From positions 1 to 16,321 of the forward strand of contig JBHLRS010000059.1 in NCBI GenBank assembly GCA_048882325.1: a stretch of DNA of 16,321 nucleotides, read 5' to 3'. The stretch is from Candidatus Thorarchaeota archaeon. Lineage in GTDB: Archaea > Asgardarchaeota > Thorarchaeia > Thorarchaeales > Thorarchaeaceae. Under the pieces are notes generated by a model that saw only the letters and a list, made by a program, of their open reading frames with translations, was not told where the DNA came from and ran no database searches. How positions within the stretch are numbered: position 1 is the first letter of the stretch; each line of letters begins with the position of its first letter. The position numbers and the translations under genes were made by a program. Of the stretch, positions 2,187 through 15,222 are shown one piece after another.

Positions 2187-3071
2187 CTATTGTCCCCTCT
2201 TTCGAATCGGCATGTGTAAATCAAGAATCAACTCATCTTCAGGGGCTGATGGATCTCGCGCCCGTTCAAGCTCTTGATGTTTTCCTAGCTTGTATTCCTT
2301 TGAGTTTGCAATCCATAGATGAAGTCGCCTCCATGAACTCAGAAATCCCTCTTTTTGGAATTGCTCAGCTTCCATTTCCTCTTTCAAATTGCATGTGGCT
2401 ACTGCATATAGTCCACCCTCGAACTCTTTGATCTTTATCTCACCCTCTGGTTCAACCTCAGGCCCGACACGAATCCAAAATTCATATCCGTACTCCTTTG
2501 TACTGGGTGATGGATTAGGATTATTGAACCCAAAGACGGGATGATTCTCAAGATTCTTCAGAAATCCCTTGGACTCAGCCCATGGTCTCATCTTTTCCCA
2601 TGCATCGTTCTCAGGAGTCTTACTTATGACTCGTACATATGCAACTCTCATCGGTGGGAGCTCTACAATTCGAATATCACTGAAGTCTGTAGAGTAATCG
2701 GTAGTCTTACTATGTATCAGCTCAATATATTCTGCAGACCTAAGTGCTCTGATATTCCGCCAACGCTCTGATTCCACATATGCCACTGCAATTGCATAAA
2801 TGAGTGCGAACCCATCATTACTTAGAACATATCGTCCACGGTCCACGTGATTCAGGATACCACTGTCAACCATTTTATTGAGATGATGAACAAGTGCAGT
2901 CTTGCTTAGCCCTGTTCCTCCTCGTAACTCATTGAAATCTCGTTCATCAATTGCTAGAAGTTGAATGATCTGCAATCGTGTTTCATGGGCTAAAGATCTG
3001 AGGAGTTCTGCCAAATCTTTCTTTGAACGTGCAAGGATTTCAAAAATCATGTTAGAGTCAGGCTCGCTCAT
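2187..3071 (-). CDS. ArsR-like winged-HTH regulator fused to a GyrI-like small-molecule-binding domain
   Basis: N-terminal LRSLAHETRLQIIQLL...LSKTALVHHLNKMVDSGIL; C-terminal IVELPPMRVAY...PENDAWEKM...FGFNNPNP...YGYEFWI...GGLYAV...LE. ATG 3071 preferred; the track uses TTG 3089. Confidence 0.85.
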   Translation of the reverse strand: MSEPDSNMIFEILARSKKDLAELLRSLAHETRLQIIQLLAIDERDFNELRGGTGLSKTALVHHLNKMVDSGILNHVDRGRYVLSNDGFALIYAIAVAYVESERWRNIRALRSAEYIELIHSKTTDYSTDFSDIRIVELPPMRVAYVRVISKTPENDAWEKMRPWAESKGFLKNLENHPVFGFNNPNPSPSTKEYGYEFWIRVGPEVEPEGEIKIKEFEGGLYAVATCNLKEEMEAEQFQKEGFLSSWRRLHLWIANSKEYKLGKHQELERARDPSAPEDELILDLHMPIRKRGQ

Positions 3072-3116
3072 AGCACTAGTATTTACCAAGTAGTCTATTA
3101 AATATCACTATTAAAG

Positions 3117-3143
3117 TAGTACTAATAGTACTAATATTACTGA
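3117..3143. promoter_or_regulatory. Putative operator: tandem 9-mers TAGTACTAA-TAGTACTAA-TATTACTGA
   Basis: Both direct repeat and dyad (TAGTACTA-A-TAGTACTA, 3117-3133), about 45 bp upstream of the regulator start. Confidence 0.45.
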
Positions 3144-3170
3144 ACATTTAGAGATATCCAGTAGGACCTA

Positions 3171-3219
3171 GAAATAGAACTTTCCCTTGCCGCTCACTGT
3201 TGAGCACCCTTTTCATTTT
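3171..3219 (+). repeat. Array repeat R1
   Basis: GAAATAGAACTTTCCCTTGCCGCTCACTGTTGAGCACCCTTTTCATTTT. Confidence 0.85.
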
Positions 3220-3323
3220 ATCAATTAAGTAGATAGTATATCCAATTACTGTAAATTCTTATAATTCAAAGTTGAGCCTCATTTTTCAATTTAAAATTCA
3301 GCCTTAAATAAGTGGAGAGATGA

Positions 3324-4313
3324 ATGTTGGAATACCTACAGCTCAAAGGTAGCTACTATGAAATTGGAAAAGCGTTTGGAAAATCCCGGAGGGCTGATAG
3401 GTTATTATATCATACTCCTGACAATGAGAGGTTGGAGTACGCATATGCCTGTGAAGATGTAGTGAGGACACATGCTCCTGATCTACTTGACGAGCTGAGA
3501 GGATTTTCGGATGGAATAGGTTTGGAGTATCAGCAGATCCTTCCTACACATATTCTTCCTGTAGTTTCAACTGGTTGTAATCTTTTCTTTGTAAAAGGAG
3601 AGAGTACTTGCACTAGACTACCTATCTTTGTGCGCCATATGGATTGGATAGAAGATGATCTCAAGTTTCTTAATCTGCTTGAAACAAAACCAGTAGGAAA
3701 GCATTCTGTACTTGGTTTCAACCTTGCTGATCTTGGATGCTTTGATGGATTGAATGAAACTGGATTAGCAGTAGGAACAGCCTCCATTCCATTCTATATT
3801 GGAAAGAATGGAGTGGGTATTCGTGAGAATCTTGCTACAAGATGGTCGCTAGACAACTTCTCTACTGTTGAAGAAACTGCTGAATATCTAAAGAGTATTC
3901 CTCATGTTCAACCAATAGTCTATCTTATAGCTGACAAGACAGGGGTTTCAGCACGTGTGGAATGCACGCCAATAAGGGTCGATGCTGAAATTTCTGAGAG
4001 CAACCTTAGAATCGTGTGTAATTTCTTCATGCTTGGAAGCATGAAAGAATTGGACTCTATGCCGAAGGATGACCGGGCTTGGACCTATTATCGGCGAATC
4101 ATGGAATGGTTCACTCAATCCAATAATGACGTAAAATTAGATGATATCAAGAGAATCTGTAGGAGTCATAATACTGGTATATGTGAGCACCTGGATAATC
4201 CCCCTGGAGGCACCATCTATTCTTGGTTCTCTGAACTTGGTACCGGTATAATTCATCTGGCAGTAGGATATCCCTGCAAGAACGATTATCAACGGTATCA
4301 GTTTACAAGATGA
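3324..4313 (+). CDS. C45-family Ntn-hydrolase (acyl-CoA:6-APA acyltransferase-like peptidase)
   Basis: LKGSYYEIGKAFG N-terminus, autoproteolytic G|C site (STGCNLF), RHMDW, DGLNETGLAV, YLIADKTG, GYPC. Confidence 0.85.
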   Translation: MLEYLQLKGSYYEIGKAFGKSRRADRLLYHTPDNERLEYAYACEDVVRTHAPDLLDELRGFSDGIGLEYQQILPTHILPVVSTGCNLFFVKGESTCTRLPIFVRHMDWIEDDLKFLNLLETKPVGKHSVLGFNLADLGCFDGLNETGLAVGTASIPFYIGKNGVGIRENLATRWSLDNFSTVEETAEYLKSIPHVQPIVYLIADKTGVSARVECTPIRVDAEISESNLRIVCNFFMLGSMKELDSMPKDDRAWTYYRRIMEWFTQSNNDVKLDDIKRICRSHNTGICEHLDNPPGGTIYSWFSELGTGIIHLAVGYPCKNDYQRYQFTR

Positions 4314-4402
4314 ATTGTCACAAGATTTTCACGATTTCAATCGTGGAGAGAGCTTGCTCTGTCTTCGGACGGAGAGAGGTGCAGGCTATGACGGCGGAGT
4401 TA

Positions 4403-4450
4403 GCAACGGGACCTTTCCCTAGCCACTCACTGTTGAGCACCCTTTCATTT
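4403..4450 (+). repeat. Array repeat R2
   Basis: GCAACGGGACCTTTCCCTAGCCACTCACTGTTGAGCACCCTTTCATTT. Confidence 0.9.
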
Positions 4451-5353
4451 CGCTGACATACATTCAAGCTCTGTCTGGAAGATTTTCACTATTCTGAAAC
4501 CCTTGTTTGTCAAGGTCAGGCATTCAGTGTGTTGTTCTTTTCCGTCATCTTTTTGAACGACCCCCTTTCCCAAGAGCTCATTCATAACGAGTCTTTTGGC
4601 TTTCTTCTTGGGAGCGGCTCGCAACCGGGGATTGGTTTGCCGTTTCAAGATTCCTTTCACGACCAACTCGACCGGTAGTGAGCCTGATTCACATATTTCC
4701 AACAGGGGATAGATTGCAGCTCTTAGCTGTTCAGCAAAAGCGGACCAACTGAAGATAGTGTTAGCGTAATCTGTTGCTTGGTCAAGCGGAGTCACTGTCA
4801 CACGTGACGCCATCTCCTCTGGAATCGATTCGACATCAATGAGAAATCCGACGAAAGGGCAAGAATCAACAGCTGAATCATACATTTCATCCTCTCCTTT
4901 CGCAGGTATGCCCTTGGGTGCAATCACGAAAACGTCAGAATATGGGCCTGCATTAATTCCCACTGGATTAACTGTGATCTCTATGGGAGTCCTAGTCAGG
5001 GCGTCTTTCGATTGTATCACCGTTCTCACGCCGAAGAGACCCGCCACTCCCAAGGAATCGATTGCGCACATGGCGTATCCGGTGCCTATACCCTCGACAG
5101 TTATTCTGTGGTCAGTTTCAAAAGGTGAAAATGGATAGGCACCTCGTAGAGTGCCTTCATCATCAAAGCTCAAAAGTGACGTGTAGTGTGCTATCTCTAC
5201 ATAGTTGAGTTGTTTGAAAAGTCTAGAAAACTTCACCTGTATCTCGTCAAATGTCGTTCCCTTTAGCACGCAACTCAGGACCTCGAGGTGTAGGTTTAGG
5301 AAGTCACTGACGACTCGATTATTGATCAGTTTCAATTGTGCATCGGTTGTCAC
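4445..5353 (-). CDS. MerB-like (organomercury lyase family) protein with a C-terminal extension
   Basis: GAYPFS...TDHRI...YAMCAIDSLG...CPFVGF places Cys, Asp and Cys like the MerB catalytic triad. About 90 extra C-terminal residues. Confidence 0.75.
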   Translation of the reverse strand: MTTDAQLKLINNRVVSDFLNLHLEVLSCVLKGTTFDEIQVKFSRLFKQLNYVEIAHYTSLLSFDDEGTLRGAYPFSPFETDHRITVEGIGTGYAMCAIDSLGVAGLFGVRTVIQSKDALTRTPIEITVNPVGINAGPYSDVFVIAPKGIPAKGEDEMYDSAVDSCPFVGFLIDVESIPEEMASRVTVTPLDQATDYANTIFSWSAFAEQLRAAIYPLLEICESGSLPVELVVKGILKRQTNPRLRAAPKKKAKRLVMNELLGKGVVQKDDGKEQHTECLTLTNKGFRIVKIFQTELECMSAK

Positions 5354-5544
5354 CTAATCAACCCCTATATGGTGAATGAAGAATCGTCATGAAATGTCTG
5401 TAAATGAACGACTTCATGGAGCAATTGGTTAGGAGGTTCAAAGTCTCTCTCTCCACAACCTGCGAGAGACATGAATTCCACATACTTTTCAAACTATTGT
5501 TAAGAGCAATCACATAGGAAGCAGATAATGAGTATGAGGACTAG

Positions 5545-5602
5545 CCGTGGTAGAACCACGGGTAATTGCCCAACTGGATCTTTTAAGCACCCTTTCTCTT
5601 TT
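5545..5602 (+). repeat. Array repeat R3 (divergent copy, preceded by hairpin CCGTGGT-AGA-ACCACGG)
   Basis: GGGTAATTGCCCAACTGGATCTTTTAAGCACCCTTTCTCTTTT. Confidence 0.7.
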
Positions 5603-5691
5603 GCAGCAGTCAAGAATCAAAAACCGAATTAACGAGTATTTTAGCGGACAGTAGAAAGATATAATCACATCTTTATGGATGCGTAGTAGTC

Positions 5692-6063
5692 ATGACTAGA
5701 TTTACACGTGTGTATACTGACGAGAATGGTGAAACTCATTTTGAAGATGTGGAGGTTGAATTATCACCAAGTAGCTTTGCACCACCAGCACCACCCTTGA
5801 ACCTCTCAGAATTCAAAGAATCAAAGAAATACGGATTCGTGAAAGCACCTAGTGGATGGTTTGGAGATTGGCACCCCACACCCAAGTGTCAAATGTTTGT
5901 CTATATTTCAGGGAAGATGGAAGCACAAGTTAGTGATGGAGAAGTACGTATATTTGGTCCAGGCAGTGTCACTCTAGTGGAGGATACAACAGGGAAAGGA
6001 CACAAGTCCCGAGTAATTGGAGAACAGGATGTTCTTACACTCGTCATTCAACTTGAGGAGTGA
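5692..6063 (+). CDS. Cupin-fold protein
   Basis: YTDENGETHFED, DWHPTP, SDGEVRIFGPGSVTLVEDTTGKGHKSR are typical of a widespread small cupin family. Confidence 0.85.
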   Translation: MTRFTRVYTDENGETHFEDVEVELSPSSFAPPAPPLNLSEFKESKKYGFVKAPSGWFGDWHPTPKCQMFVYISGKMEAQVSDGEVRIFGPGSVTLVEDTTGKGHKSRVIGEQDVLTLVIQLEE

Positions 6064-6082
6064 TAATCCACAAACACTTACC

Positions 6083-6144
6083 AGGCTACCAAGTTTGGTA
6101 AATAGAGAACTGTCCCGTCCTCACCCGTTGAGCACCCTTTCATT
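6083..6144 (+). repeat. Array repeat R4
   Basis: AGGCTACCAAGTTTGGTAAATAGAGAACTGTCCCGTCCTCACCCGTTGAGCACCCTTTCATT. Confidence 0.9.
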
Positions 6145-6261
6145 CAAATTAAACTAATTTCATTACACCTCTCCGCTGTGGTTTTTGCTAACTTCCAAAT
6201 TGTGCCTATAACTGATGCCTTATTTCAGATTATATGTTCCAAAAAGAAGGAATGAATACTC

Positions 6262-7266
6262 TTGCCACTCCCCAATGATATTCGTCTCCAAATAACTTCA
6301 GAATGCAATTATCACTGCAGTCATTGTTTTTCATCCAGTAATGAAAATGACGTGAACACAGACCTAAGTGATTCAGAAATCCTTCGTCTATTGAATCAGA
6401 TTTTACACGAGAATCTGACAGCTATTAGTATTACAGGAGGAGAACCATTAGTCAAATCAGAGCTCGTTTTCAAGATTCTCAAACGACTGCAAGGGTATGC
6501 GATTACCAAGACATTGAACACAAATGGTTGGTTCTTGTCACTGCCAACTGCTATTCGACTAAAAGAATCAGGATTGAACATAGTTCAAATTAGTCTGGAC
6601 AGCAGCACTGAGGAAAAACACGATTCATTTCGTAAGATGAGCGGCTCATATAGACGGGCATTAGAGGCAATAGAAAACTCTGCTAAAGCAGGTTTAGAGA
6701 CTCATGTGAGAGTTACAATCACTTCATTCAATTATGATGAGATGTCAACTATCTTAGATTTGGCCCTCAAGAAGGGTGCAACCAAGTTAGTTGTGAAACC
6801 TCTCATTCATTCAGGTCGAGGGTCACATGACTGCAAGCCATTGAAACCTGAACAGCATAAAAGAGCAATTTCTGACCTTCTTAATTTAATCCATTCTAAC
6901 TCAAACTTGACGAATAACCATGTCCAGTTCCTCACACCGTGTTTTCCTTTCTTGATTGATCAAGAATATGTTCAATATACTGATCCGTGTGAGTGTGGGA
7001 ATGGCCTTGCATTCATTGCTAGTAATGGTGATGTACAACCATGTGGTTATGCTCACATTACTTTGGGCAATATACTCAGAACATCTCTAGAGAGTATATG
7101 GAGTGATTCACCACATCTACTCAGATGGAGAGGAACTAAGCTCAACGGAAAGTGTCTAGTTTGTAAGTTTGGTGAAATCTGTCAAGGTGGGTGTCGTGCT
7201 GCTGCCTATGAAGCAACTGGTGATATGACATCCCCAGACCCAGCATGTTGGCTGGAGGAATCTTGA
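6262..7266 (+). CDS. Radical SAM enzyme with SPASM domain
   Basis: CNYHCSHC (CX3CX2C), TGGEPL, TNG, QISLD; SPASM CECG...GDVQPC...CLVC-x5-C-x-GGCRA...DPAC. Confidence 0.92.
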   Translation: MPLPNDIRLQITSECNYHCSHCFSSSNENDVNTDLSDSEILRLLNQILHENLTAISITGGEPLVKSELVFKILKRLQGYAITKTLNTNGWFLSLPTAIRLKESGLNIVQISLDSSTEEKHDSFRKMSGSYRRALEAIENSAKAGLETHVRVTITSFNYDEMSTILDLALKKGATKLVVKPLIHSGRGSHDCKPLKPEQHKRAISDLLNLIHSNSNLTNNHVQFLTPCFPFLIDQEYVQYTDPCECGNGLAFIASNGDVQPCGYAHITLGNILRTSLESIWSDSPHLLRWRGTKLNGKCLVCKFGEICQGGCRAAAYEATGDMTSPDPACWLEES

Positions 7267-8177
7267 TGATTATGCCCACTCATGCCCGAACAGTGAAAGT
7301 GGTGACGCGAGCTGACTTTCACTCCATAAGTGAAATTTTAGGAACACTCACCTATGAAACGACAGAGTACTGTATATACCTTGACGAACAAGAAGAGAAC
7401 GTTATTGGCGTATTTCGGGTGACATCCATTCCTGAAACTGAACCTTTCGCCAGAATAAAGGAACTTGTAGAGATTGCACCCGAAGCACCAAAACGACTCA
7501 TTCAGGACTCACATTTGGATGTTACAAGTCCCTTGCAAGTTCTAAGATACTTGGAAAAACTCAAAGCTGGTAGCATTGGTCCGGAAACCATCACCTTCAT
7601 TGCAAAGCATGACCATGTAACCTTTGCATACTGCGACCGCCCAGTTAGTCTTCCTGGAATTCAAGTGATTGATGTAGTTCCTCCTTCACCAAGTAAGCTT
7701 GAAAGAGCTCTGAAGGTATTACAGCATGCAGGCGTGGTTCCAGTTGATTTTCCTGTCACCTATCATCTGATTGATGAGGTTGAGCTACTTAGGGGAATGA
7801 AGTCAGAACCAGTTCTGATTCCATGCAGACTCAGTGATTTAAACACGAATCAGACAAGAAGAAGGATCTTCTCAGTAGACAAGAACCTTCATCAGTTGGA
7901 AGACGGAAAAGTGCATGTACTGGGGTGTACAAGAACACAGCAAGCGGCGCAAGCTCATGGGATTGAGGTTGAGGAGTTCAAGAGTATGTGTCCTAAACAC
8001 AATCTTCCCGAAAAGGGATTCTTCATCGCCAAGTGCTGCATGATGAGATCTGGTGTTGAGCAAATTGAATATGAGCAAGCTAAAGGTGTAGTAGTTCCTT
8101 GGGGATTCAACTATGCTCAGATATTCGAAGCTGGTATTCTACTTCAAGATTTGATAGTCTCTAGTTTCGTTTACTAA
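7266..8177 (+). CDS. Cys-motif protein of unknown function, coupled to the radical SAM gene
   Basis: TGATG stop/start overlap at 7264-7268. Motifs DVVPPSPSKL, LIPCR, VLGCTRT, MCP, AKCC, VVVPWG. Confidence 0.7.
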   Translation: MIMPTHARTVKVVTRADFHSISEILGTLTYETTEYCIYLDEQEENVIGVFRVTSIPETEPFARIKELVEIAPEAPKRLIQDSHLDVTSPLQVLRYLEKLKAGSIGPETITFIAKHDHVTFAYCDRPVSLPGIQVIDVVPPSPSKLERALKVLQHAGVVPVDFPVTYHLIDEVELLRGMKSEPVLIPCRLSDLNTNQTRRRIFSVDKNLHQLEDGKVHVLGCTRTQQAAQAHGIEVEEFKSMCPKHNLPEKGFFIAKCCMMRSGVEQIEYEQAKGVVVPWGFNYAQIFEAGILLQDLIVSSFVY

Positions 8178-8318
8178 TTACCAAAGATTAGCTCATCACT
8201 CATAAACAGTCGCCTCAAGTTACATGAACTTCTCTTATTATTTCCTCAACAAAAATGCATCTTGTTCAATTCTTGCATAGGATAGCAAGGTATCTGTAAC
8301 GGAGCCTGCGGATGGAAA

Positions 8319-8402
8319 ATGGACTTAGGATATAGACTGACAGGGTTCGGTGAACAGAGAACTTTTTTCTTCCTCACCTGTTGAGCCACCCTTTTCATTT
8401 TT
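8319..8402 (+). repeat. Array repeat R5 (long form)
   Basis: ATGGACTTAGGATATAGACTGACAGGGTTCGGTGAACAGAGAACTTTTTTCTTCCTCACCTGTTGAGCCACCCTTTTCATTTTT. Confidence 0.9.
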
Positions 8403-8467
8403 CTAGAATTTCGGATTTGATTTCCACTATCATTATTCTAATATTCAACGACGTGGAAGGTTTGATT

Positions 8468-8629
8468 ATGAAGCAAGTAAACGGACTTTATGAATGCGAA
8501 GAATGTCATTTATTTTATGAAGATGCAAAATGGGCAAAGAAATGTGAGGAATGGTGTATCGAGCACAAGTCTTGTAACCTCGAGATTATGAAACACGCCA
8601 CGAAGGATTCTAAATTAACTCTCTCATAA
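8468..8629 (+). CDS. Small Cys/His-rich putative metal-binding protein (53 aa)
   Basis: MKQVNGLYECEECHLFYEDAKWAKKCEEWCIEHKSCNLEIMKHA. The track start at 8381 lies inside R5, so ATG 8468 is preferred. Confidence 0.7.
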   Translation: MKQVNGLYECEECHLFYEDAKWAKKCEEWCIEHKSCNLEIMKHATKDSKLTLS

Positions 8630-8652
8630 ATACTCTAAGTCGCTTTTCTCAG

Positions 8653-8733
8653 ATGGACCTGGGGTATAGGCTGTCGGGATCCAGTGAACAGGGAACTTTC
8701 CCCCTCCTCACCTGTTAAGCACCCTTTCATTTT
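8653..8733 (+). repeat. Array repeat R6 (long form, closest to consensus)
   Basis: ATGGACCTGGGGTATAGGCTGTCGGGATCCAGTGAACAGGGAACTTTCCCCCTCCTCACCTGTTAAGCACCCTTTCATTTT. Confidence 0.9.
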
Positions 8734-8866
8734 CGTTCAATATGTGGAGATTAGCTTTGATGCATCAAGATTTGATTTGTGATTCAGGTCTATTGACGTT
8801 ATTGTAGTATAGCAAATTCGACATAGCCACATATTAGAACAGTTAGAAGACATACAAAATGTGGTT

Positions 8867-9349
8867 ATGCCTATGAGAAAACCGAATACGGATTTTACTC
8901 TAGAGGTAACAGGAACTAGTAGGCGGTGTCCTGTTGGAGAGAAAACTGGTGCTCAATATATGTCGGAGAAAAAAACACCTATTCTCGCCTGTGCAGGAGC
9001 ATGTATCCGAGGCGAAATCGCTCGATTAGCCGCGAACATAGTTTCGAAAAAGGACGGGTTTCGACATGCATGTCATGGCGAAGTACTCACTGTCCCGGGT
9101 TCGGGATTTGATAATTGGATTGCAGCAGCAGACAAAGTCATACTAATCGACGGATGTTTCATGCGATGTTGGGGACGGATTTTAGAAAATCTGATTCCTG
9201 AAGAGAAGTTGATTCAGTTCGATGCATTGTCTCATTATAAGAAGTATACGAATGTATTCGATATTGATGCTGTCCCTGAATCTGAAAGGAATCAGGTGGC
9301 ACAAAGTGTGGCTAGTTGGGTACTTGCTAGTATGGAAAAGGACGTCTAG
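8867..9349 (+). CDS. DGC-domain putative zinc-binding protein
   Basis: ILACAGACIRGEIARLAA, HACHG, ILIDGCFMRC. Start could be 8861, 8867 or 8873. Confidence 0.85.
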   Translation: MPMRKPNTDFTLEVTGTSRRCPVGEKTGAQYMSEKKTPILACAGACIRGEIARLAANIVSKKDGFRHACHGEVLTVPGSGFDNWIAAADKVILIDGCFMRCWGRILENLIPEEKLIQFDALSHYKKYTNVFDIDAVPESERNQVAQSVASWVLASMEKDV

Positions 9350-9548
9350 TATTCGAAGCTACTGCAACTCCGACGGAAATATAACACCACCTACAACGCC
9401 ACCAATAACTCCACCCGGACGACTCCCTTCTATTGATGTAATCAAATTTTACGAGAAATTGTGATACGCATTGACCTACAAGGTTCAGAATCCCTGGAGC
9501 TTTGATGTCTGGATGGAGAACCCGTGATAGATTTCAGGATAGAGAGAA

Positions 9549-9614
9549 GTAGAGGCGGTGGCGATAGAGTATTTGGGGATTACGAAATGCTCATTGCTGA
9601 GCCCCTTTCATTTT
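9549..9614 (+). repeat. Array repeat R7 (subtype B)
   Basis: GTAGAGGCGGTGGCGATAGAGTATTTGGGGATTACGAAATGCTCATTGCTGAGCCCCTTTCATTTT. Confidence 0.8.
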
Positions 9615-9631
9615 ACAGCGGCTGCTATCCA

Positions 9632-10315
9632 TTATTCCGCGCGTCGGAACAGCTGGATATATGGTATGAGTGCAGCCACTAACTTTCCTTCCGCTTTCTT
9701 CAAATGATCGACAAATGTAGTTCTTGGAACATGCAACCTCTTCGCAATCGTCTGAACATTCGCTCTCCTTGGAAAACTGAAGTATCCCTGAGAGTACGCA
9801 GTGACTAAAGCATCTATTTGCTTATCTGTCAGTTCTGAAAACAAAGTATCTGCTGTCATCGCTACTGAGCTGATGAACGAACCACTGTACGGTTTCTTCC
9901 GTAGTATTTCGACTTCAAAATCTTCAGTTGCGAGATTCTTCATCAACTTCGTGATATCTTCATGCTTGAACGCAACTATCCTGTAGTATTCCCACCCCTT
10001 CTCATAATACACTGGGTTGAATTCGAGGAAGTTCAACTCCTCGAGATATCGACTTACAGATCCAGGTTCTAGACAAGAACATGATTTCGTGACCAAATGG
10101 ATCCTATTGCTATCGGATACCTCATTCATGATACTCATGGTCTTCTGCAAATCACTTCGAATGCTGGGATACTCGTCCTGATTCCGAATAACTAACTCTA
10201 GGACATCGTGCTCGCGATTACACCATTGAAATATCTTCAATGATGGATGCTTGCGTGAAATGTTTCCAACCGGACAATCATGACTTACTTTGAATGTGAC
10301 CTCGAAGAGTGGCAT
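9632..10315 (-). CDS. Archaeal HTH_10 (bacterio-opsin activator-type) transcriptional regulator
   Basis: N-terminal HDCP; C-terminal LTDKQIDALVTAYSQGYFSFPRRANVQTIAKRLHVPRTTFVDHLKKAEGKL. Confidence 0.9.
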   Translation of the reverse strand: MPLFEVTFKVSHDCPVGNISRKHPSLKIFQWCNREHDVLELVIRNQDEYPSIRSDLQKTMSIMNEVSDSNRIHLVTKSCSCLEPGSVSRYLEELNFLEFNPVYYEKGWEYYRIVAFKHEDITKLMKNLATEDFEVEILRKKPYSGSFISSVAMTADTLFSELTDKQIDALVTAYSQGYFSFPRRANVQTIAKRLHVPRTTFVDHLKKAEGKLVAALIPYIQLFRRAE

Positions 10316-10353
10316 ACACTTTCACTGTTTCACTCCAATATATAGTATTAGCA

Positions 10354-10391
10354 GTAATATTACGTTTGAGATTCACTAACGTCATATTACG
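10354..10391. promoter_or_regulatory. Putative twin operator GTAATATTACG / GTCATATTACG
   Basis: Perfect palindrome GTAATATTAC at 10354-10363 and a 1-mismatch copy at 10381-10391, in the divergent intergenic region next to the HTH_10 gene. Confidence 0.5.
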
Positions 10392-10438
10392 CTACAATAC
10401 TAAACTGAGTTCTGGGTATCTATTATCATGTGATTATC

Positions 10439-10654
10439 ATGGCGTGTGAAACAAGTTATGTATCAATGGAACGTAAAGTCACAAGTAGAGATGACGAAGA
10501 GTCAGTCGATACATCCAACCATCTAAACAGCGATGGGAACAAGGCTGAACAGATCAGGGCGTCGCGTGAGAGCATGTACCTTAAACGCCATCGCATTGAC
10601 CGATACCGGACATCCGGTAGGGCTCTCCTGTTCGCGGCTTCCTTTAACAAATAA
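10439..10654 (+). CDS. Small hypothetical protein with acidic N-half and basic C-half
   Basis: Open frame divergent from the HTH_10 gene just after the twin operator. No recognisable family; start could be 10430, 10439 or later. Confidence 0.5.
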   Translation: MACETSYVSMERKVTSRDDEESVDTSNHLNSDGNKAEQIRASRESMYLKRHRIDRYRTSGRALLFAASFNK

Positions 10655-10829
10655 TGGAGATGACATGAAATGCAAGAACTGCTAACTGTATTGCCTCTCC
10701 CGCCTCTATTTGATATTGGATTTTCCAGCGGACTTGCGTTATTAGTACTCGGTTATAGAGAAGACCTGAGAGTCTTTGCAAGGAGAATTAGAAACAATCG
10801 ATCAAATGATTGAGGAGGAGGTGAAATAG

Positions 10830-11057
10830 ATGGGATGCGGAAGTGCAACAACAAAGAGAAAATCCAGATATACTGCGAGAAGTCCGGAGAGAGTTGATCG
10901 CGGTACATCGACTATTCTGATGCCTCGAGTTCCACAGAAATGCTTCAACTGTGGGGCGAGCATTCACACTGAAAAGGTGAATTGGATTGGCCCAGATAGA
11001 ATAGAGTGTCCATACTGCGGACAAGCCTTAACAGTTGAGTTCGAAAAAGTGGTTTGA
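10830..11057 (+). CDS. Small zinc-ribbon protein
   Basis: CFNCG...CPYCG; strong ribosome-binding site GGAGGAGGTGA just upstream. Confidence 0.75.
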   Translation: MGCGSATTKRKSRYTARSPERVDRGTSTILMPRVPQKCFNCGASIHTEKVNWIGPDRIECPYCGQALTVEFEKVV

Positions 11058-11063
11058 ATGGGT

Positions 11064-11134
11064 GCAGAGGCAACGGTGAGATAGAGTGTTTAGGGTAATG
11101 CCCTTCTCACATTGCTGAGCACCTTTTCATTTTT
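11064..11134 (+). repeat. Array repeat R8 (subtype B)
   Basis: GCAGAGGCAACGGTGAGATAGAGTGTTTAGGGTAATGCCCTTCTCACATTGCTGAGCACCTTTTCATTTTT. Confidence 0.85.
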
Positions 11135-11239
11135 CAATTATCAATATTTTTGAGCGGGTTCTACGGAGTGTTAAATAATCTCTAATCTGAATTCCACATT
11201 GGAATGACCTAGGAAGCAAAGAGATTTCTTCTAAGTGTA

Positions 11240-11818
11240 CTATCTGGAGTTTGCAGTATCAGCTTTCGGAAGAATGCCATATCGCTGAACAAATTCACTC
11301 TTGATGATGTCCATAATAGCTACATCGTCTCTCTTTCCATTGATGTACGCTCCTTCTCTAAGAAATCCCAATTTCTGGAATCCAATTTTCTCATAGAAAC
11401 TGATTGCGTGTTGATTGAATTTATAGACAAAGAGATAGACATTATGCAATCCTAAAATGTTGAAAGTAAAATCCAGCAGAACCAACATGGCATCTTTTCC
11501 ATACCCCTTTCCTCTGTTGTTTTTATCAAAGATTACCAAGTTATCAATCATACCAGTACCACTGATCCAGTTGATGTTTGATACATCTATGAATCCCACT
11601 AGTTTCCGTGTTTTTTGGTCTTCAATGCCGAATGTGAAGACATATCGACCTGCAAAGCCTTCATTCCTCGATGAAATAAAATCCTGAATCTCCTTGTGTG
11701 TCTTGGGAAATGGATTTGGGAAATATTGTCTGATTTGATATTCATTCCAGTGTTCAAGTATGATGTCTGCGTCTGCAAGCTCTAAACGTCTTAGCTTTAC
11801 TATTTCCCCTTGGTACAT
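11240..11818 (-). CDS. RimJ/RimL-type GNAT N-acetyltransferase
   Basis: GEIVKLRRLE, RGKGYGKDAM, LGLHNVYL, FNQHAISFYEKIGF, G.LRE. ATG 11818 preferred over 11950. Confidence 0.9.
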   Translation of the reverse strand: MYQGEIVKLRRLELADADIILEHWNEYQIRQYFPNPFPKTHKEIQDFISSRNEGFAGRYVFTFGIEDQKTRKLVGFIDVSNINWISGTGMIDNLVIFDKNNRGKGYGKDAMLVLLDFTFNILGLHNVYLFVYKFNQHAISFYEKIGFQKLGFLREGAYINGKRDDVAIMDIIKSEFVQRYGILPKADTANSR

Positions 11819-11957
11819 TAGAATCAGATACGCGTAATTATCTCTAATTTTAACTATATGGGAGTGCGCTGGTTTACGCATTCGATAAGAACGGTCGTCG
11901 CAATTAGAAATGCATCTCAGAATAACTTCAGAACTTGCTATCTCAATCATTTATCCT

Positions 11958-12041
11958 AGATGGTCTTTTGGCATAGGCTGAGGGGTCGGGTATCCAGGGA
12001 AAATTGCCTTGCCTATCCCGTTGAAACCCTCTCTCTCTTTT
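11958..12041 (+). repeat. Array repeat R9 (long form, diverged)
   Basis: AGATGGTCTTTTGGCATAGGCTGAGGGGTCGGGTATCCAGGGAAAATTGCCTTGCCTATCCCGTTGAAACCCTCTCTCTCTTTT; colinear with R6. Confidence 0.75.
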
Positions 12042-12205
12042 GCATAAGTAGCCTAATCTTCACTTCATATCAGCTATAACCTGCTACTAATTCCGCGAAC
12101 CCCCTCAGACTTTGAAATGTTCGAAGATGGCTTCCTAACACAAGTGTTAAATGAAACACTACAAATTAATTAACAATAGTTAATGATGATGAAGGTAAAA
12201 TCCAC

Positions 12206-12637
12206 ATGCCCGCTCAAATCAGATTCTCTCAGATCATTGATAGACCCGTGACTAAAGTGTTCCACTTCGTAGCTGAACAACATGTCCGTAATCACCCACG
12301 CTGGGACCCAGACATAGAGCTCTGGTTGGAAACGGATGACCCAATTGAAGTTGGAACGATTATTCACAGACGCAATAGCCGCAGTGGCACCCCTATTGAG
12401 GGAACCATGGAAGTCGTGGAATTCGATCCTAACCATGCCTTTGGAACTGTCATCCACGATGGTCCAGCTGAGATGCGTGGAAGGATCACATTCGAGGCAA
12501 TTAGTGAGAACCAAACCACAGTGACGACTGTTATTGACATTCCCGGAATGGATGAGTCCATGGATAAGAGCTTCATAACAAGCCGCTTGGAACGGAGCGG
12601 TCAAAATATGAAACAGCTTATCGAGTCTGAAACCTAA
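12206..12637 (+). CDS. SRPBCC / polyketide-cyclase-like protein
   Basis: IDRPVTKVFHFVA...NHPRWDP...VGT...EVVEFDPNHAF...LERSGQNMKQLIES. Confidence 0.8.
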   Translation: MPAQIRFSQIIDRPVTKVFHFVAEQHVRNHPRWDPDIELWLETDDPIEVGTIIHRRNSRSGTPIEGTMEVVEFDPNHAFGTVIHDGPAEMRGRITFEAISENQTTVTTVIDIPGMDESMDKSFITSRLERSGQNMKQLIESET

Positions 12638-12661
12638 GAATCCTGTGGAAGATGGTGAAAG

Positions 12662-13048
12662 ATGGCAGAACCTATAGTATTCATCATCCGTCATCGAATA
12701 AAGGAAGGAATGCTAGATAATTTCAACGATCACTACCGGCAAAGCATCCCATTGACAGAGAAAAGTAAACCAGGCACGATTATCCAGCTTGCGTACGTAA
12801 ACGACGATGCGGCTGAGGTTGATATTGTTCGCATCTTTCCCAATGCGGAGGCATTAGACCTCCAATTACAAGGAGCTGATCAGCGATCAAAGACAACCTA
12901 CAAATTCATCGAACCAATCAGCATCGAAATTTATGGCACTCCCAACAATTTTGCCATTGAGATGATAAAGAAGATCGCGGGATCGGGGATCGACGTGAGT
13001 GTCAAATCTCAATTCATTGGCGGCTTCATTCATTCCAATTATGAGTAA
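12662..13048 (+). CDS. Dimeric alpha+beta barrel (ABM-like) protein
   Basis: RHRIKEGMLDNF...KPGT...YVNDD...IFPNAEALD...IEIYGTP. Confidence 0.65.
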   Translation: MAEPIVFIIRHRIKEGMLDNFNDHYRQSIPLTEKSKPGTIIQLAYVNDDAAEVDIVRIFPNAEALDLQLQGADQRSKTTYKFIEPISIEIYGTPNNFAIEMIKKIAGSGIDVSVKSQFIGGFIHSNYE

Positions 13049-13095
13049 TCAGGGAACTTTTCAGTTCTCACTCTATTGAGCAACCCCTTCTCTTC
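13044..13095 (+). repeat. Array repeat R10
   Basis: AGTAATCAGGGAACTTTTCAGTTCTCACTCTATTGAGCAACCCCTTCTCTTC. Confidence 0.8.
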
Positions 13096-13119
13096 TAGAA
13101 AATCAGGTTAGTTGTAACA

Positions 13120-13575
13120 TTACCATTCGATTGTCTTGTCTTTATATTTGGAATAGCAATTTTCACATACACGCAAAGGAAACTCTGGTTTTGTACACTG
13201 AAGTTTATGTGACTGAACTCCATCTTTGTGGACTTTCAACTGATCTCCGCAAATGTTACAATTGTATAGAGCCTCGATTTTGAACTTGATTTCTCGAGAT
13301 GGACAATTATACACCCTCATGTTACGTTCTGGACTGCCCAACTCCCTCATGTCACCAAAGACTCGCATGGAATGTAATATAGGATACATTCCAACAAGAC
13401 TCTCCATGCAAATTCCCTCTGGAGAGTTCCAACTAAACTCGAATTTTTGCCCAACTTTATGACTTGCACGGCAATTCCCATCTTCTATAATTGTGACTCT
13501 AAAGGAAACAACTTCTTGCTGACTATCTCGAAGCCTTAGGATTGATTCTTTTTCTGAAAGATTCCTTGAAGCCAT
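13120..13575 (-). CDS. TIGR04076-like Cys-rich protein with a C-terminal CxxC...CxxC module
   Basis: GNCRASHKVGQKF...PEGICMESL...NCP...IKFKIE, then CNIC...CENC. Start 13575 or 13584. Confidence 0.7.
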   Translation of the reverse strand: MASRNLSEKESILRLRDSQQEVVSFRVTIIEDGNCRASHKVGQKFEFSWNSPEGICMESLVGMYPILHSMRVFGDMRELGSPERNMRVYNCPSREIKFKIEALYNCNICGDQLKVHKDGVQSHKLQCTKPEFPLRVCENCYSKYKDKTIEW

Positions 13576-13728
13576 TTCTAGCACCTATATTTCAATATAC
13601 ACTCCCCTCTATATTATTCACTCCTCTCTATCTTGTAGAGCACCCAGACCAGCGTATTGTCAAATCCAAAGTCTTATGATTATGGATAGAGAAGAGGTCC
13701 AACTTTCAATCTGTTAAAAATTGGAGTC

Positions 13729-13789
13729 AGACTGGATTTGGTGAACATGGAACTACCCTTCCCTAACTGTTGAGGCACACTTTCATCTT
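13729..13789 (+). repeat. Array repeat R11
   Basis: AGACTGGATTTGGTGAACATGGAACTACCCTTCCCTAACTGTTGAGGCACACTTTCATCTT. Confidence 0.8.
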
Positions 13790-13822
13790 GTATATCTCAT
13801 ATACTACAGGAACTCTTCAAAA

Positions 13823-14263
13823 TCAAACACGTTTTGGCTTCCGCTTGATCTGCAATAGTTTCTTAATATCCTCAATGGACATCGCTTCAGACATTGTAAT
13901 CCAAAGCCAACGCCCATCACGCAATTGCCCTGTATTGCTATACTGGTTTCTCAGAACCGGAGCTAGTTCATTCAGGATTTCCTCTACCTTTCCCACCTCA
14001 TTACTTCCAAGCACAATCAGGATTGTGAAACTACCAGCCTCGGGAAACAATGAGCAAAGTGTCTTCCCACTCTTGCGATAGCGAACAGTCCAACCGTATT
14101 TTTTCCCATAGAATACAGTTTCAGGTACAATATCATAGTTATTCTCAAGAAACTCTTTTAGTTCACTCCACTCTTTTACGAACTTTGATCCTATGAAAAT
14201 CCTCATGTCTTCATCTGACGGCAACTTCTCCTTCTCATACATGCGTTGGGGAACATTATTCAA
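13823..14263 (-). CDS. DUF3788-family protein
   Basis: YGKKYGWTVRYRKSGKTLCSLFPE...DGRWLW...DIKKLLQIKRKP. Confidence 0.8.
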   Translation of the reverse strand: MNNVPQRMYEKEKLPSDEDMRIFIGSKFVKEWSELKEFLENNYDIVPETVFYGKKYGWTVRYRKSGKTLCSLFPEAGSFTILIVLGSNEVGKVEEILNELAPVLRNQYSNTGQLRDGRWLWITMSEAMSIEDIKKLLQIKRKPKRV

Positions 14264-14402
14264 TTTCTAAATACTCCCTTCACTTTCAGTGATGTCAATG
14301 TGATTCGAGATATGACTTGTTCTGGTTTAAAATCTATGAATGAATTAAAAATCAGCAACAGGTATCTCAAAGTTCTCAGAATTCTAGTTAAGTAAGAATC
14401 AA

Positions 14403-14504
14403 AGACTGAAGGAATGAAGTGAACAGGGGACCTTCCTGTTCGTTCCTCTTTAATCAGATTCTCACACCACTTTATCTATTGAGGCGTCAATACCCCCAAT
14501 TTTC
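14403..14504 (+). repeat. Array repeat R12 (atypical or split copy)
   Basis: The 5' half AGACTGAAGGAATGAAGTGAACAGGGGACCTTCC matches R5/R6. A displaced 3'-like half CTCAC...TATTGAGGC...ACCCCCAATTTTC lies at 14461-14504. Confidence 0.55.
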
Positions 14505-14584
14505 TAGTATATGAAATATACACTCAAGACTAGTGAGTATCATGCATTTTATGTACAGGACAGGTACACCATCGCGTGAATCGT

Positions 14585-15091
14585 ATGAAACGAAAACTGA
14601 CAAAAGAGAAAATCATAGAACGAGTTCATACTGAGCGAAGAAGACTCGAGAAGAACCTCGCTTCATTATCTGATGATGATATGTTAGAATCAGGTGTAAT
14701 AGGTGAATGGTCTGTAAAGGATATTATGGCGCATCTCTTTGATTGGGAGCAAAGATTTCTTGGTTGGTATGAAGCTGGATTAAGAGGCGAGGTGCCTGAA
14801 ACTCCCGCTCCTGGACTCAAATGGAGTCAACTACGAATATTGAATCAGCAGGTATTTGAAAAGCATCGTGACCGAAAACTGGAAGAAGTCAAAACAGAGT
14901 TTCAGTCTTCTTTCGCACATGTACTTGATACTATAGATGAAATTCCTGAGGACGACATCTTTGAGATTGGTAGATACAGATGGACCGGTAGAGGAAATAT
15001 CGGCGGATTCATCCTAGCAAACACAGCTAACCACTATCGGTGGGCAAAGAGTAGGATACGTAGTTGGATGAAGCGAACTGGAAGACTTTGA
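14585..15091 (+). CDS. ClbS/DfsB-like (DUF1706, DinB-superfamily) four-helix-bundle protein
   Basis: WSVKDIMAHLFDWEQRFLGWY...PAPGLKWSQL..LN...NTANHYRWA. Confidence 0.8.
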   Translation: MKRKLTKEKIIERVHTERRRLEKNLASLSDDDMLESGVIGEWSVKDIMAHLFDWEQRFLGWYEAGLRGEVPETPAPGLKWSQLRILNQQVFEKHRDRKLEEVKTEFQSSFAHVLDTIDEIPEDDIFEIGRYRWTGRGNIGGFILANTANHYRWAKSRIRSWMKRTGRL

Positions 15092-15222
15092 TCTAGATGA
15101 TTTCCAAAGTTCATGACTATCTCATTCAACATACTTATTGGTGCGTTGAGTAATCTAATAGTGTCAATATTGGCGTAGTGTTCGCAAACTCAGAAAGAAT
15201 CAAGCTGGAGGGTAAGTTACTC

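Follow-up and report, generated by a model that had tools for sequence, protein, structure and literature searches.

A Thorarchaeota island of accessory-gene cassettes delimited by copies of the 16S rRNA trailer

Introduction

Among the closest described systems are additive flexible genomic islands and tandem accretions at tRNA/tmRNA 3' ends: fGI-2 of the Methylophilaceae is marked by a recurring 20-bp piece from the end of tRNA-Lys (PMC10872708), and the islands of Prochlorococcus are built by tycheposons (bioRxiv 10.1101/2020.12.28.424599). Clusters of attC sites without an integrase (CALINs) have been reported in Archaea, Asgard included (Ghaly et al. 2022, PMC9668308). In Ca. Heimdallarchaeum, the elements HeimM2 and HeimV2 are located between the sole 16S rRNA gene and a tRNA-Arg, and a homing-endonuclease homologue was proposed to mediate the site integration of HeimM2 (Wu et al. 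2022, PMC8813620). The archaeal pre-16S rRNA is processed at a stem in which leader and trailer form a helix with a bulge-helix-bulge cut by the splicing endonuclease (PMC7038931, PMC10351888). No published description of cassette arrays on 16S trailers was found in the literature. The locus compared here with these systems is contig C59 (the window, 16,321 nt) of the Thorarchaeota genome G000 (3,595,161 bp).

Results and Discussion

Co-oriented repeats and the modules between them

A repeat search of the window recovered one family of 12 copies, 70-125 nt each, on the + strand between 3142 and 14467. When a 12-copy nhmmer profile was run against the whole 3,595,161-bp genome, 12 significant matches were obtained (E 5e-16 to 2e-5), 12/12 on the + strand of contig C59, the next matches being at E 0.06 and 7.6 on other contigs; a broader 89-copy profile returned the same 12 copies in this genome. 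The chance of all 12 lying on the same strand is 2^-11. These results bear out the 12 co-oriented intergenic repeats proposed in a previous, sequence-only reading of this DNA and, in the genome and its relatives, confine them to arrays instead of dispersing them like REP or MITE elements. The starts given there agree within about 30 nt, although the copies extend further than was listed there, reaching about 125 nt. As had also been claimed, no copy was found inside a gene pair among the 12 of the window, and copies stand at convergent, tandem and divergent junctions. The Rfam search of the window gave no match, and the tRNA search found no tRNA. The copies delimit 11 unrelated modules, listed here with the flanking genes.

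3-1250, - strand: N-terminal part of a UvrA-like protein (Pfam UvrA_inter, UvrA_DNA-bind), cut by the contig end
1247-2224, - strand: Pol-beta-type nucleotidyltransferase, MntA-like (Pfam Polbeta, NTP_transf_2; NCBIfam MntA match weak, under the cut-off)
2187-3089, - strand: ArsR-HTH and GyrI-like/Cass2 effector-binding regulator (Pfam Cass2, GyrI-like, HTH_5)
3324-4313, + strand: module 1, C45 family acyltransferase/hydrolase (Pfam AAT; NCBIfam NF040521, 131 bits, above cut-off)
4445-5353, - strand: module 2, MerB-like, alkylmercury lyase family (Pfam MerB)
5692-6063, + strand: module 3, cupin-like (weak Pfam Cupin_2 match)
6262-7266 and 7245-8177, + strand: module 4, radical SAM/SPASM enzyme and its DUF7714/XcbA-like partner (Pfam/NCBIfam)
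8381-8629, + strand: module 5, 82-aa ORF (small82), no match in Pfam and NCBIfam
8861-9349, + strand: module 6, DGC-domain protein (Pfam DGC)
9632-10315, - strand: module 7, HTH_10/HVO_A0563_N regulator
10430-10654, + strand: module 7, 74-aa ORF
10830-11057, + strand: module 7, zinc-ribbon 75-aa ORF
11240-11950, - strand: module 8, GNAT acetyltransferase
12206-12637 and 12662-13048, + strand: module 9, SRPBCC protein and a 128-aa ORF ("ABM") with no match in the family search
13120-13584, - strand: module 10, TIGR04076 family protein (NCBIfam, 35.9 bits; cut-off 33)
13823-14263, - strand: module 11, DUF3788 protein
14576-15091, + strand: DinB/DUF1706 gene
15178-16320, + strand: HTH (DUF7347) and FAD/NAD oxidoreductase, cut by the contig end

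Most of the earlier gene labels were thus recovered by Pfam/NCBIfam, the cupin weakly, while the "ABM" and "small Zn protein" (module 5) labels have no family match behind them. Several modules recur in relatives: the MerB-like product is 88% identical to a product of G003 (contig C57), the cupin-like module reaches 91% identity in G013, where it directly precedes the DGC module, the DGC protein is 94% identical in G003 and G013, module 7 in its entirety (9632-11057) is 92% identical in G003, the two genes of module 9 are paired in G003 and G013 as well, and the 82-aa ORF is conserved in G018, G012 and G017. The UvrA-like gene is an accessory paralogue and not the core uvrA, its best match among 27 genomes of the genus being just 48% identical and another copy lying on contig C15 of G000; the regulator at 2187-3089 is a variable gene, with a 93% match in G006 alone and matches of about 40% elsewhere. 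Because the DinB/DUF1706 gene lies between detected repeat copies in G003, the variable island probably extends beyond the last repeat of the window.

Relation of the repeat to the 16S rRNA trailer

By homology, the repeat is a paralogue of the trailer that follows the 16S rRNA gene and supplies the 3' strand of the pre-16S processing helix. At locus L020 of G005, the 16S gene occupies 4252-5753 (Rfam) and the first repeat copy begins about 30 nt after it; in RNAcofold, this trailer (5780-5867) forms a predicted 70-bp duplex with the 16S leader (-110.8 kcal/mol), in which no canonical 3-4-3 bulge-helix-bulge could be discerned. When aligned with the G005 16S 3' end and trailer, R5 and two further copies match the terminal ~35 nt of the gene as well as the trailer, and in some copies the final 8-60 nt of 16S are retained. 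Read in array direction, every module closes with 70-170 nt homologous to the 16S trailer, whose end is T-rich. The repeat has a sharp, fixed 3' end and a ragged 5' end. The copies in the window are the following.

R1, 3142-3223, + strand: left part truncated; nhmmer and covariance-model matches; core nearest (95% over 43 nt) to a 16S trailer from a different genus (G156)
R2, 4331-4454, + strand: long trailer copy with a 5' TTCG-loop hairpin; nhmmer E 2e-18 (89-copy profile); last bases overlap the MerB stop codon
R3, 5532-5620, + strand: weak trailer copy
R4, 6077-6151, + strand: trailer copy
R5, 8283-8405, + strand: trailer copy with a ~35-nt 16S 3'-end remnant ahead (about 8283-8316)
R6, 8626-8742, + strand: top-scoring trailer copy; nhmmer E 1e-21 (89-copy profile); 80% identity (90 nt) to the trailer adjoining 16S in G017
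R7, 9523-9633, + strand: weak trailer copy
R8, 11055-11149, + strand: trailer copy
R9, 11944-12051, + strand: trailer copy
R10, 13035-13110, + strand: trailer copy
R11, 13698-13802, + strand: trailer copy
R12, 14376-14467, + strand: left half of a trailer copy, GTTGAGC core degenerate

R3, R7 and R12 are weak or truncated, R12 being without the GTTGAGC core. The rightmost ~25 nt of the trailer (CTGTTGAGC(C)ACCC...) recur in almost all 16S trailers read across the genera of the family, presumably because they form the base of the processing helix, and would thus offer the same landing pad in every member. As the separators are spare 16S-trailer copies, the tail of the rRNA gene would serve as an integron-like site of gene swapping.

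Archaeal terminators carry a T-rich stretch, and the T-rich unit ends could therefore point to an RNA-level role as what mainly keeps the copies, either as terminator or insulator stopping read-through driven by the strong rRNA promoter or as a processing signal pairing with the 16S leader in trans, with shuffling as a by-product. The leader pairing of the original trailer and the RNA-type features kept by eye (TTCG loops, G-U pairs, and a TTCG hairpin stem whose sequence varies among copies with pairing kept) are consistent with such a role. We nevertheless consider it quite improbable, since 41% of the array ORFs face the other way, so that a copy is unable to act as their 3' element, and since the hairpin differences are accounted for equally well if the copies stem from the diverged 16S trailers of separate lineages. 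In addition, no consensus fold was found across the 12 copies of the window, R3, R7 and R12 are decaying, and the independent assortment of modules described below would be left unexplained.

Anchoring at the 16S gene and distribution

In 5/5 genomes of the genus with the 16S 3' end and its flank assembled (G005, G012, G015, G017 and G042), a repeat copy lies directly against that end, and wherever the contig could be read in relatives the array runs downstream of this copy, the 16S gene being single. No 16S gene was found in the G000 assembly, so the linkage of the window contig to 16S is drawn from relatives; its left end is the UvrA-like paralogue and not rRNA. The repeat is present in 28/28 genomes of the genus, mostly in co-oriented arrays (190 copies on 31 contigs, co-oriented on 29/31), and in at least three other genera of the family copies of the own trailer recur downstream of 16S (G074, G065, G156). 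When about 185,000 species genomes were scanned for the exact motif, 41 stretches were obtained, with titles naming only Thorarchaeota, Promethearchaeota or archaeal MAG, and the motif had no match in IMG/VR viral contigs. The sequence-only reading had missed both the nature of the site, a 16S 3' end plus trailer copy, and the anchoring of arrays at 16S.

Exchange of modules between copies

Copy pairs in different genomes with a common neighbour module shared the left one in 102 cases, the right one in 59 and both in 1; modules assort independently. Relatives carry the same modules in other combinations and orders. Both between species and within natural populations, modules show gain, loss and re-ordering, and the breakpoints lie in the copies, in agreement with the earlier suggestion of a gene-capture or shuffling array that has a site type of its own. 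In G013, cupin and DGC modules are joined by a hybrid copy matching R4 on its left and R6 on its right; R10 is split, its left part accompanying module 9 in G003 and the ~20 nt at its right accompanying module 10 in G013; the counterpart of R9 in G003 has an extra 2.1-kb module on its right; and the left part of R7 is absent from G003 as well as from some contigs of the X1 and X4 runs, where 9343-9619 is skipped. Metagenome contigs present alternative junctions at repeats, with C45 joined to SRPBCC and small82 to an R2-type copy. No circular intermediates were seen in assembled contigs, as distinct from raw reads.

The exchange points lie inside the repeat, at about -50 to +40 around GTTGAGC (roughly 90 nt), and are not fixed. 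Three-way mapping placed them in clusters at 0..+15 and -50..-22 relative to GTTGAGC: 7/12 well-resolved points fall in one ~15-nt stretch (0..+15), which is also the most conserved and could be the place of a site-specific cut, and 4/12 lie 22-50 nt further left, a mapping that is noisy given that species differ by 10-25% and that gene conversion can blur exchange points. As the points are spread, the copies may act as portable homology and not as a classic recombination site.

With 283 clusters from 21 genomes, 180/283 in one genome only, the array cargo shows high diversity and is toxin-antitoxin-rich; ParE, PIN and a UPF0175+DUF3368 pair are among the commonest clusters, and units are mostly of one or two genes (median 1.2 kb). 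It resembles chromosomal-integron cargo in its toxin-antitoxin pairs, GNAT, DinB and Cass2. Together with the cassette-like layout and the CALINs reported in Asgard archaea (PMC9668308), this could suggest a classical integron array or CALIN whose attC sites are recombined by IntI. We regard that explanation as highly unlikely: sequence conservation and homology to the 16S trailer set the copies apart from structure-conserved imperfect palindromes, the genes point both ways and have long upstream regions, no attC-type fold was found in the repeat, and neither IntI nor any tyrosine recombinase was found in six genomes. In the accessible part of the genome table in PMC9668308, moreover, two Thorarchaeia MAGs are listed with just 2 attC each. 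This agrees with the sequence-only reading, which had set the locus apart from classic integrons.

Search for a recombinase or nuclease

An enzyme acting in trans or encoded elsewhere had been supposed. With positive controls in order, tyrosine recombinases (PF00589) gave no match in G000 and five relatives, and serine recombinases (PF00239) and HUH enzymes (PF01797) none in five genomes; none stands beside annotated arrays. The window genes, the commonest cargo clusters, the other annotated array cargo and the conserved block ahead of the 16S gene likewise yielded no recombinase. Such an enzyme could be carried by plasmids or viruses, which are absent from MAGs.

An unrecognised dedicated site-specific recombinase is possible, if doubtful, either as a new chromosomal family or on an unbinned plasmid or virus; its core site would be the conserved right-hand end of each trailer copy (as for IntI on attC/attI), and new cassettes would enter at the 16S-adjacent copy. 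The co-orientation of all copies, the sharp 3' end against the ragged 5' end, the seven well-resolved exchange points at 0..+15 and the first cassette after 16S, which differs among G005, G012 and G017, are all consistent with it. The integron R' consensus is GTTRRRY, and GTTGAGC fits it, possibly by coincidence. Against this stand the enzyme searches, the four well-resolved exchange points further left, the lack of dyad symmetry or consensus fold and the absence of the motif from IMG/VR.

Break-induced homing, in which an endonuclease or a fragile site would cut in or beside the trailer and repair would copy a cassette from a two-copy donor, is in our view unlikely. Co-conversion tracts of variable length would account for the spread of exchange points on both sides of one hot spot, and in the complete genome G054, from a different Asgard family, the 16S trailer and a direct-repeat copy of it (113 nt, 94.7% identity) flank a 6.6-kb LRR-protein element, and a free-standing LAGLIDADG gene and then a tRNA come directly after, a layout matching HeimM2 with its proposed mediator (PMC8813620). 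In 81 genomes of the Thorarchaeota family, however, LAGLIDADG matches lie mostly within long reading frames, probably inteins, or in the 16S gene span; the few small free-standing genes were not seen on the array contigs examined, and G000, G005, G012 and G013 have no LAGLIDADG.

Taken together, we lean towards an additive integron-like island of accessory-gene cassettes on 16S-trailer copies, with exchange mainly through homology-driven recombination. Recombination between trailer copies would drive exchange, a module being excised as a circle with a single copy when two copies pair, and the circle or imported DNA could then insert at any copy, the 16S-adjacent one included. Because the exchange points are spread and no recombinase gene was found, the engine would most likely be host homologous recombination or gene conversion instead of a dedicated integrase. 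A separate matter is the first acquisition of a trailer copy by a new gene, for which homologous recombination gives no explanation.

Comparison with known systems

As in the islands at tRNA/tmRNA 3' ends, the anchor is the 3' end of a stable-RNA gene, the island is punctuated by its direct repeats, and the cargo is strain-specific and accessory, in cargo-only units without an integrase of their own. The Thorarchaeota anchor differs in being the 16S trailer, a processing-helix strand, and not a tRNA, its repeats measure 70-170 nt against about 20 nt, its units mostly hold one or two genes, and tyrosine and serine recombinases were not found in the six and five genomes searched. With sedentary chromosomal integrons and CALINs it shares long co-oriented arrays, in which each one- or two-gene cassette is closed by a repeat, and a huge, mostly unique cargo pool with toxin-antitoxin cassettes interspersed, whereas IntI, attI and Pc are missing from the Thorarchaeota arrays, the site is sequence-conserved and derived from the rRNA flank instead of a folded attC, 41% of genes are opposite and exchange points are not fixed.

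In HeimM2/HeimV2, likewise, the Asgard 16S 3' flank is the insertion site, and the G054 element of that layout is flanked by its 113-nt 16S-trailer direct repeat; the Heimdall type is one large element adjoined by a LAGLIDADG gene, whereas in Thorarchaeota many small cassettes are arrayed and such a gene does not consistently adjoin them. Finally, while the 12 copies of the window are orphans with neither 16S gene nor leader adjoining, the putative founding copy next to 16S is exactly the trailer strand of the pre-16S processing stem, with its predicted 70-bp leader pairing.

Extent of the repeat array in the genome

The repeat family was recovered by a repeat search of the window and its 12 copies (R1 to R12) were aligned to build an nhmmer profile, which gave 12 significant matches in the whole genome of this Thorarchaeota archaeon (G000; 3.6 Mb, 89 contigs), with E values from 5e-16 to 2e-5 and all on the + strand of the contig forming the window (C59). 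The next-best matches had E values of 0.06 and 7.6, and a broader profile made from 89 copies left the result unchanged. The array of 12 intergenic copies on one strand, as described by the sequence-only reading, is real and far beyond chance. Its other statements on the window stood up as well: all copies are direct and none is inverted, and most gene labels were upheld by Pfam and NCBIfam. The copies keep to one contig and one strand instead of showing the even, genome-wide spread on both strands of a REP- or MITE-like family. The genes had also been described correctly as lying in both orientations with long upstream regions, unlike integron cassettes: 4 of the 11 modules (the gene units between copies) are reversed relative to the repeat, and + strand genes are preceded by upstream regions of about 90-170 nt. 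No family was matched by an Rfam scan of the window at E values up to 1, and no tRNA or tmRNA was found in it.

Individual features of the window are as follows.

3-1250, - strand: UvrA-like gene, an accessory paralogue with at most 48% identity to any copy in 27 genus genomes
4445-4451: site at which the reverse-strand MerB-like gene ends, its stop codon falling within the conserved TCA of the R2 core
6262-8177, + strand: two-gene cassette, a radical SAM/SPASM frame overlapping a DUF7714 frame

Because its stop codon falls there, the MerB-like gene takes its end from the repeat. The DUF7714 protein has a sub-threshold similarity to the XcbA family. The UvrA-like gene adjoins an MntA-like nucleotidyltransferase and an ArsR-GyrI/Cass2 regulator and may be a resistance or defence module instead of serving excision repair; being an accessory paralogue, it was ruled out as a core-genome flank of the array. 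Since the ArsR-Cass2 gene at the left of the window is also variable, the entire contig appears to lie within a variable island.

The repeat corresponds to the 16S rRNA trailer

Three relatives (G005, G012 and G017) have in common a conserved 12-kb block at whose end lies a non-coding stretch of 1.9 kb (90-94% identity), which directly precedes their first repeat. This stretch is a complete 16S rRNA gene, and the relevant features in G005 (stretch L020) are:

4252-5753: 16S rRNA gene (Rfam, 1366 bits)
about 30 nt 3' of the 16S end: start of the first repeat copy
5780-5867: trailer, paired to the 16S leader over 70 bp (RNAcofold, -110.8 kcal/mol)

As shown by this pairing, the repeat is the 3' strand of the pre-16S processing helix. 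The copies are homologous to the leader-pairing segment directly 3' of the 16S gene. Paralogues of the 16S 3' flank thus stand between the accessory modules of the array. The repeat ends T-rich, and for R5, as for copies in G019 and G010, the alignment extends into the final ~35 nt of the 16S gene. In relatives the array is anchored at the 16S gene, a copy adjoining it in all five genus genomes in which the 16S 3' end and its flank are assembled (G005, G012, G015, G017, G042). For the window itself this link is drawn from these relatives, because the 16S gene of G000 is unassembled; its contig C40 begins inside the conserved upstream block and stops short of 16S.

RNAalifold found 0 pairs and no consensus fold among the 12 copies on either strand, and therefore the repeat is not an attC-type site; short hairpins in the copies were seen by eye only. 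A coding reading of the repeat was ruled out by eye, as indels between copies shift the frame, and C/D-box sRNA, hammerhead and ωRNA were dropped because their motifs do not fit and Rfam is silent.

Some 16S genes of the family have peculiarities of their own. An insertion of ~30-40 nt at the 16S 3' end, between GGATGGA and TCACCTCC, is present in G161, G156 and G083 (L054, L057, L058) and in one cassette copy of G019. Lengths of 2.3-3.6 kb were seen for several 16S genes (G014:C73:13812-16104; G150:C2:589938-592348; G122:C71:619-4212), with a LAGLIDADG match within the 16S span in G014 and G150, probably in an intron.

Distribution and trailer lineages

The profile scan proposed by the sequence-only reading was run across the genus with a covariance model of the repeat built from sequence without structure, and all 28 genomes had copies, which on every contig formed clusters with a shared orientation. 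In total, 190 copies were located on 31 contigs of 22 genomes, co-oriented save on G012_C81 and G014_C102. On G012_C81, two inverted trailer copies (L015:3895-4534) lie 12-14 kb upstream of 16S, beyond the conserved block; they may belong to another small array or stem from a translocation.

Genomes from other genera of the family carry copies of their own 16S trailer downstream of the gene: four in G074 (three at 92-94% identity over 127-147 nt), five in G065 and one in G156. Among eight other Asgard families sampled, no own-trailer copies were found downstream of 16S, with one exception (G054). When one genome per species (~185,000 species) was scanned for exact occurrences of the core motif, 41 stretches were returned, titled solely Thorarchaeota, Promethearchaeota or unnamed archaeal MAG. 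The same exact search in IMG/VR viral contigs gave 0 matches, no string matching the repeat occurs in the supplements of Ghaly 2022, and no tRNA was found at the far end of the arrays.

The 16S-adjacent trailers vary by lineage in their left part and hairpin, and CTGTTGAGC(C)ACCC is common to almost all family trailers read. R1 and R2 resemble the core of the G156-type trailer, and R5, R6 and R9 the G005/G017 type, which suggests that cassettes may retain the trailer flavour of their place of formation. To the eye, the hairpin stems also differ among copies in an RNA-like manner, as would fit copies acting mainly at the RNA level; the likeness of the copies to trailers of different lineages explains these differences as well, and such a role is judged quite improbable.

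Module turnover and exchange points

Module content changes from species to species and also within populations, and the breakpoints fall inside the copies. Window proteins recur in arrays of other genomes beside different modules. Set against G003, the window carries additional modules between MerB and DGC and is without modules present there after GNAT and after the SRPBCC pair; in G013, the cupin module is immediately ahead of DGC and the TIGR04076 module comes before the SRPBCC pair, and not after it as in the window. The gain, loss and reordering of modules in relatives, with breakpoints in the repeat, for which the sequence-only reading had called, were thereby found. Among copy pairs across genomes, the left-hand module was in common in 102, the right-hand module in 59 and both in 1. 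Three-way comparisons revealed hybrid copies, the left part being like one partner and the right flank like another. By change-point mapping, seven well-resolved exchange points were placed at 0..+15 from the G of the core motif GTTGAGC and four at -50..-22; where DGC is the right-hand module, the switch lies at +3..+7 against G003 and at about -27 against G013. The data also point to uneven homogenisation: G017 shows a strong effect (0.82), G000 none (0.57).

Population evidence came from Logan contigs of four public sediment metagenomes, in which 254 other letters separate C45 from a following SRPBCC, and small82 (the 82-aa ORF of module 5) precedes an R2-type copy. Many contigs part from the window exactly at copy edges. 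Length variants were observed at two places, in runs holding most of the window.

9343-9619: 277 bp around R7, replaced by 32 other letters in a metagenome variant
11154-11237: 84 bp after R8, missing in a metagenome variant and likewise in G003

Two joints (3146->9545 and 3146->11080) were not used as evidence; they are probably variant copies of other strains aligned to the nearest window copy, and not deletions.

Cargo of the arrays

The 157 modules, in which ORFs were called crudely, are 1.24 kb long at the median, and roughly half of them carry one ORF; 192 ORFs (59%) are co-oriented with the repeat and 134 are opposite. Of 283 protein clusters in arrays or within 3 kb of them, 180 come from a single genome. 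ParE (10 genomes), a metallo-beta-lactamase-fold protein (8), PIN and a UPF0175+DUF3368 pair are among the most frequent, and others are accessory enzymes. Such a profile is that of a sedentary chromosomal integron.

Search for a recombinase

PF00589 (Phage_integrase) had no match in G000 (93% complete) or in five relatives (G004, G005, G012, G013, G017; the six genomes are 80-93% complete), with 14 of 14 control genomes positive. Most archaea use a XerA-type tyrosine recombinase to resolve chromosome dimers, and the absence of PF00589 would cover this enzyme too. Neither resolvase-type serine recombinases (PF00239) nor Y1 HUH transposases (PF01797) were found in five genomes, controls being positive; TnpB (PF07282) is sporadic and not on array contigs. 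No recombinase was seen among the window genes, as the sequence-only reading had stated, nor among the most frequent cargo clusters or within the 12-kb block conserved upstream of 16S (M1 peptidase, wHTH protein, MFS transporter, methyltransferase, OsmC, tRNA synthetase). The tyrosine, serine or HUH enzyme that was to be sought near the arrays thus did not turn up in these genomes.

Exchange could be driven by a site-specific enzyme that went unrecognised in these searches. We regard this as unlikely, though to be taken seriously, as the spread of the exchange points, together with the lack of a recombinase gene among those found, favours host homologous recombination or gene conversion.

Exchange could also follow break-induced homing, for which the complete genome G054, from another Asgard family, offers a lead. 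Its element (L063:100-8281) reads as follows.

from the 16S trailer: 6.6 kb encoding a 1171-aa LRR protein, then a 113-nt direct trailer copy (94.7% identity)
7066-7686: free-standing gene for a 206-aa LAGLIDADG protein, 3' of the trailer copy
8189-8281: tRNA

The layout matches HeimM2 of Ca. Heimdallarchaeum, which Wu et al. (PMC8813620) described as lying between the sole 16S gene and tRNA-Arg and as carrying a homing-endonuclease homologue; the trailer duplication noted in G054 was not met with in the passages of that article consulted. Against homing as the engine, in 81 Thorarchaeota-family genomes LAGLIDADG genes do not stand consistently beside arrays, the matches being mostly inside long reading frames, probably as inteins, or within the 16S span. 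Homing is considered improbable.

Proposed mechanism and implications

Modules would leave and enter when copies recombine with one another, all family members sharing one landing pad in the conserved base of the processing helix, and host homologous recombination or gene conversion would be the favoured engine. Taken as a whole, a cassette array of 16S-flank copies with exchange by this engine is, on balance, the reading we hold to be probable, by a modest degree. Homologous recombination, however, does not account for the first acquisition of a trailer copy by a new gene.

A broader proposal is put forward tentatively, with the chances somewhat against it: that Thorarchaeota capture genes without an integrase, using the base of the pre-16S processing helix, a sequence found again and again in the genera of the family, as a portable, family-wide landing pad, with cassettes moving between species and genera by host recombination alone or by a still-unknown enzyme, which might be tied to rRNA-flank cutting. 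If true, this would be a third way of building cassette arrays, beside integrons and tRNA-targeting integrases, and one belonging to the archaea most closely related to eukaryotes. Gene flux in Asgard archaea is heavy and its routes are poorly known; across a whole Asgard family, this locus is a concrete and conserved hot spot of gene gain and loss that is easy to recognise. It extends the landing-pad principle of stable-RNA gene ends from tRNAs to the rRNA processing helix, and gives an integron-like outcome (one-gene cassettes, stabilising toxin-antitoxin cassettes, vast unique cargo) with no integrase gene detected in assembled genomes. The trailer copies also account for the breaks in Thorarchaeota assemblies at the 16S gene and behind it; they can serve as a marker linking 16S genes to bins and to harvest the accessory gene pool from metagenomes.

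Comparison with known systems

The closest known systems are additive islands marked by recurring tRNA 3'-end repeats (PMC10872708), tycheposon-built islands, chromosomal integrons and CALINs, archaeal ones included (PMC9668308), and likewise HeimM2. Integrons have an IntI-type tyrosine recombinase next to the array and CALINs at least attC sites; PF00589 had no match in the window or the six genomes. The attC sites are imperfect inverted repeats (R''-L''...L'-R') folding as hairpins conserved in structure and variable in sequence; the copies here, in contrast, are conserved in sequence, homologous to the 16S trailer and form 0 consensus pairs. Integron cassettes are co-oriented and mostly promoterless, whereas ORFs here lie both ways (192 vs 134) and upstream regions are kept. 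With the attC-type fold, the PF00589 match and the single orientation all wanting, a classical integron is extremely improbable, close as its cargo comes. In pdif/Xer modules, 28-bp XerC/XerD sites alternate in orientation, but all copies here are direct and no Xer-type recombinase was found. REP, MITE and IS200/IS605 elements are dispersed in both orientations and rely on a Y1 HUH enzyme, unlike the copies here, which are confined to one contig and one strand; PF01797 was not found in five genomes.

Additive islands, or tandem accretion at a stable-RNA gene, start at the 3' end of the RNA gene, as seen in five relatives, and show recurring direct repeats of its end or flank, as do the 12 copies in the window and the 190 on 31 contigs; they have a tyrosine or large serine integrase on the elements or in the genome, which was not detected in the genomes searched here. 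No description of an rRNA-trailer-based cassette array was found in full-text literature searches. We class the array, for which no integrase was detected, as accretion at the end of a stable-RNA gene, with the 16S trailer as a new target.
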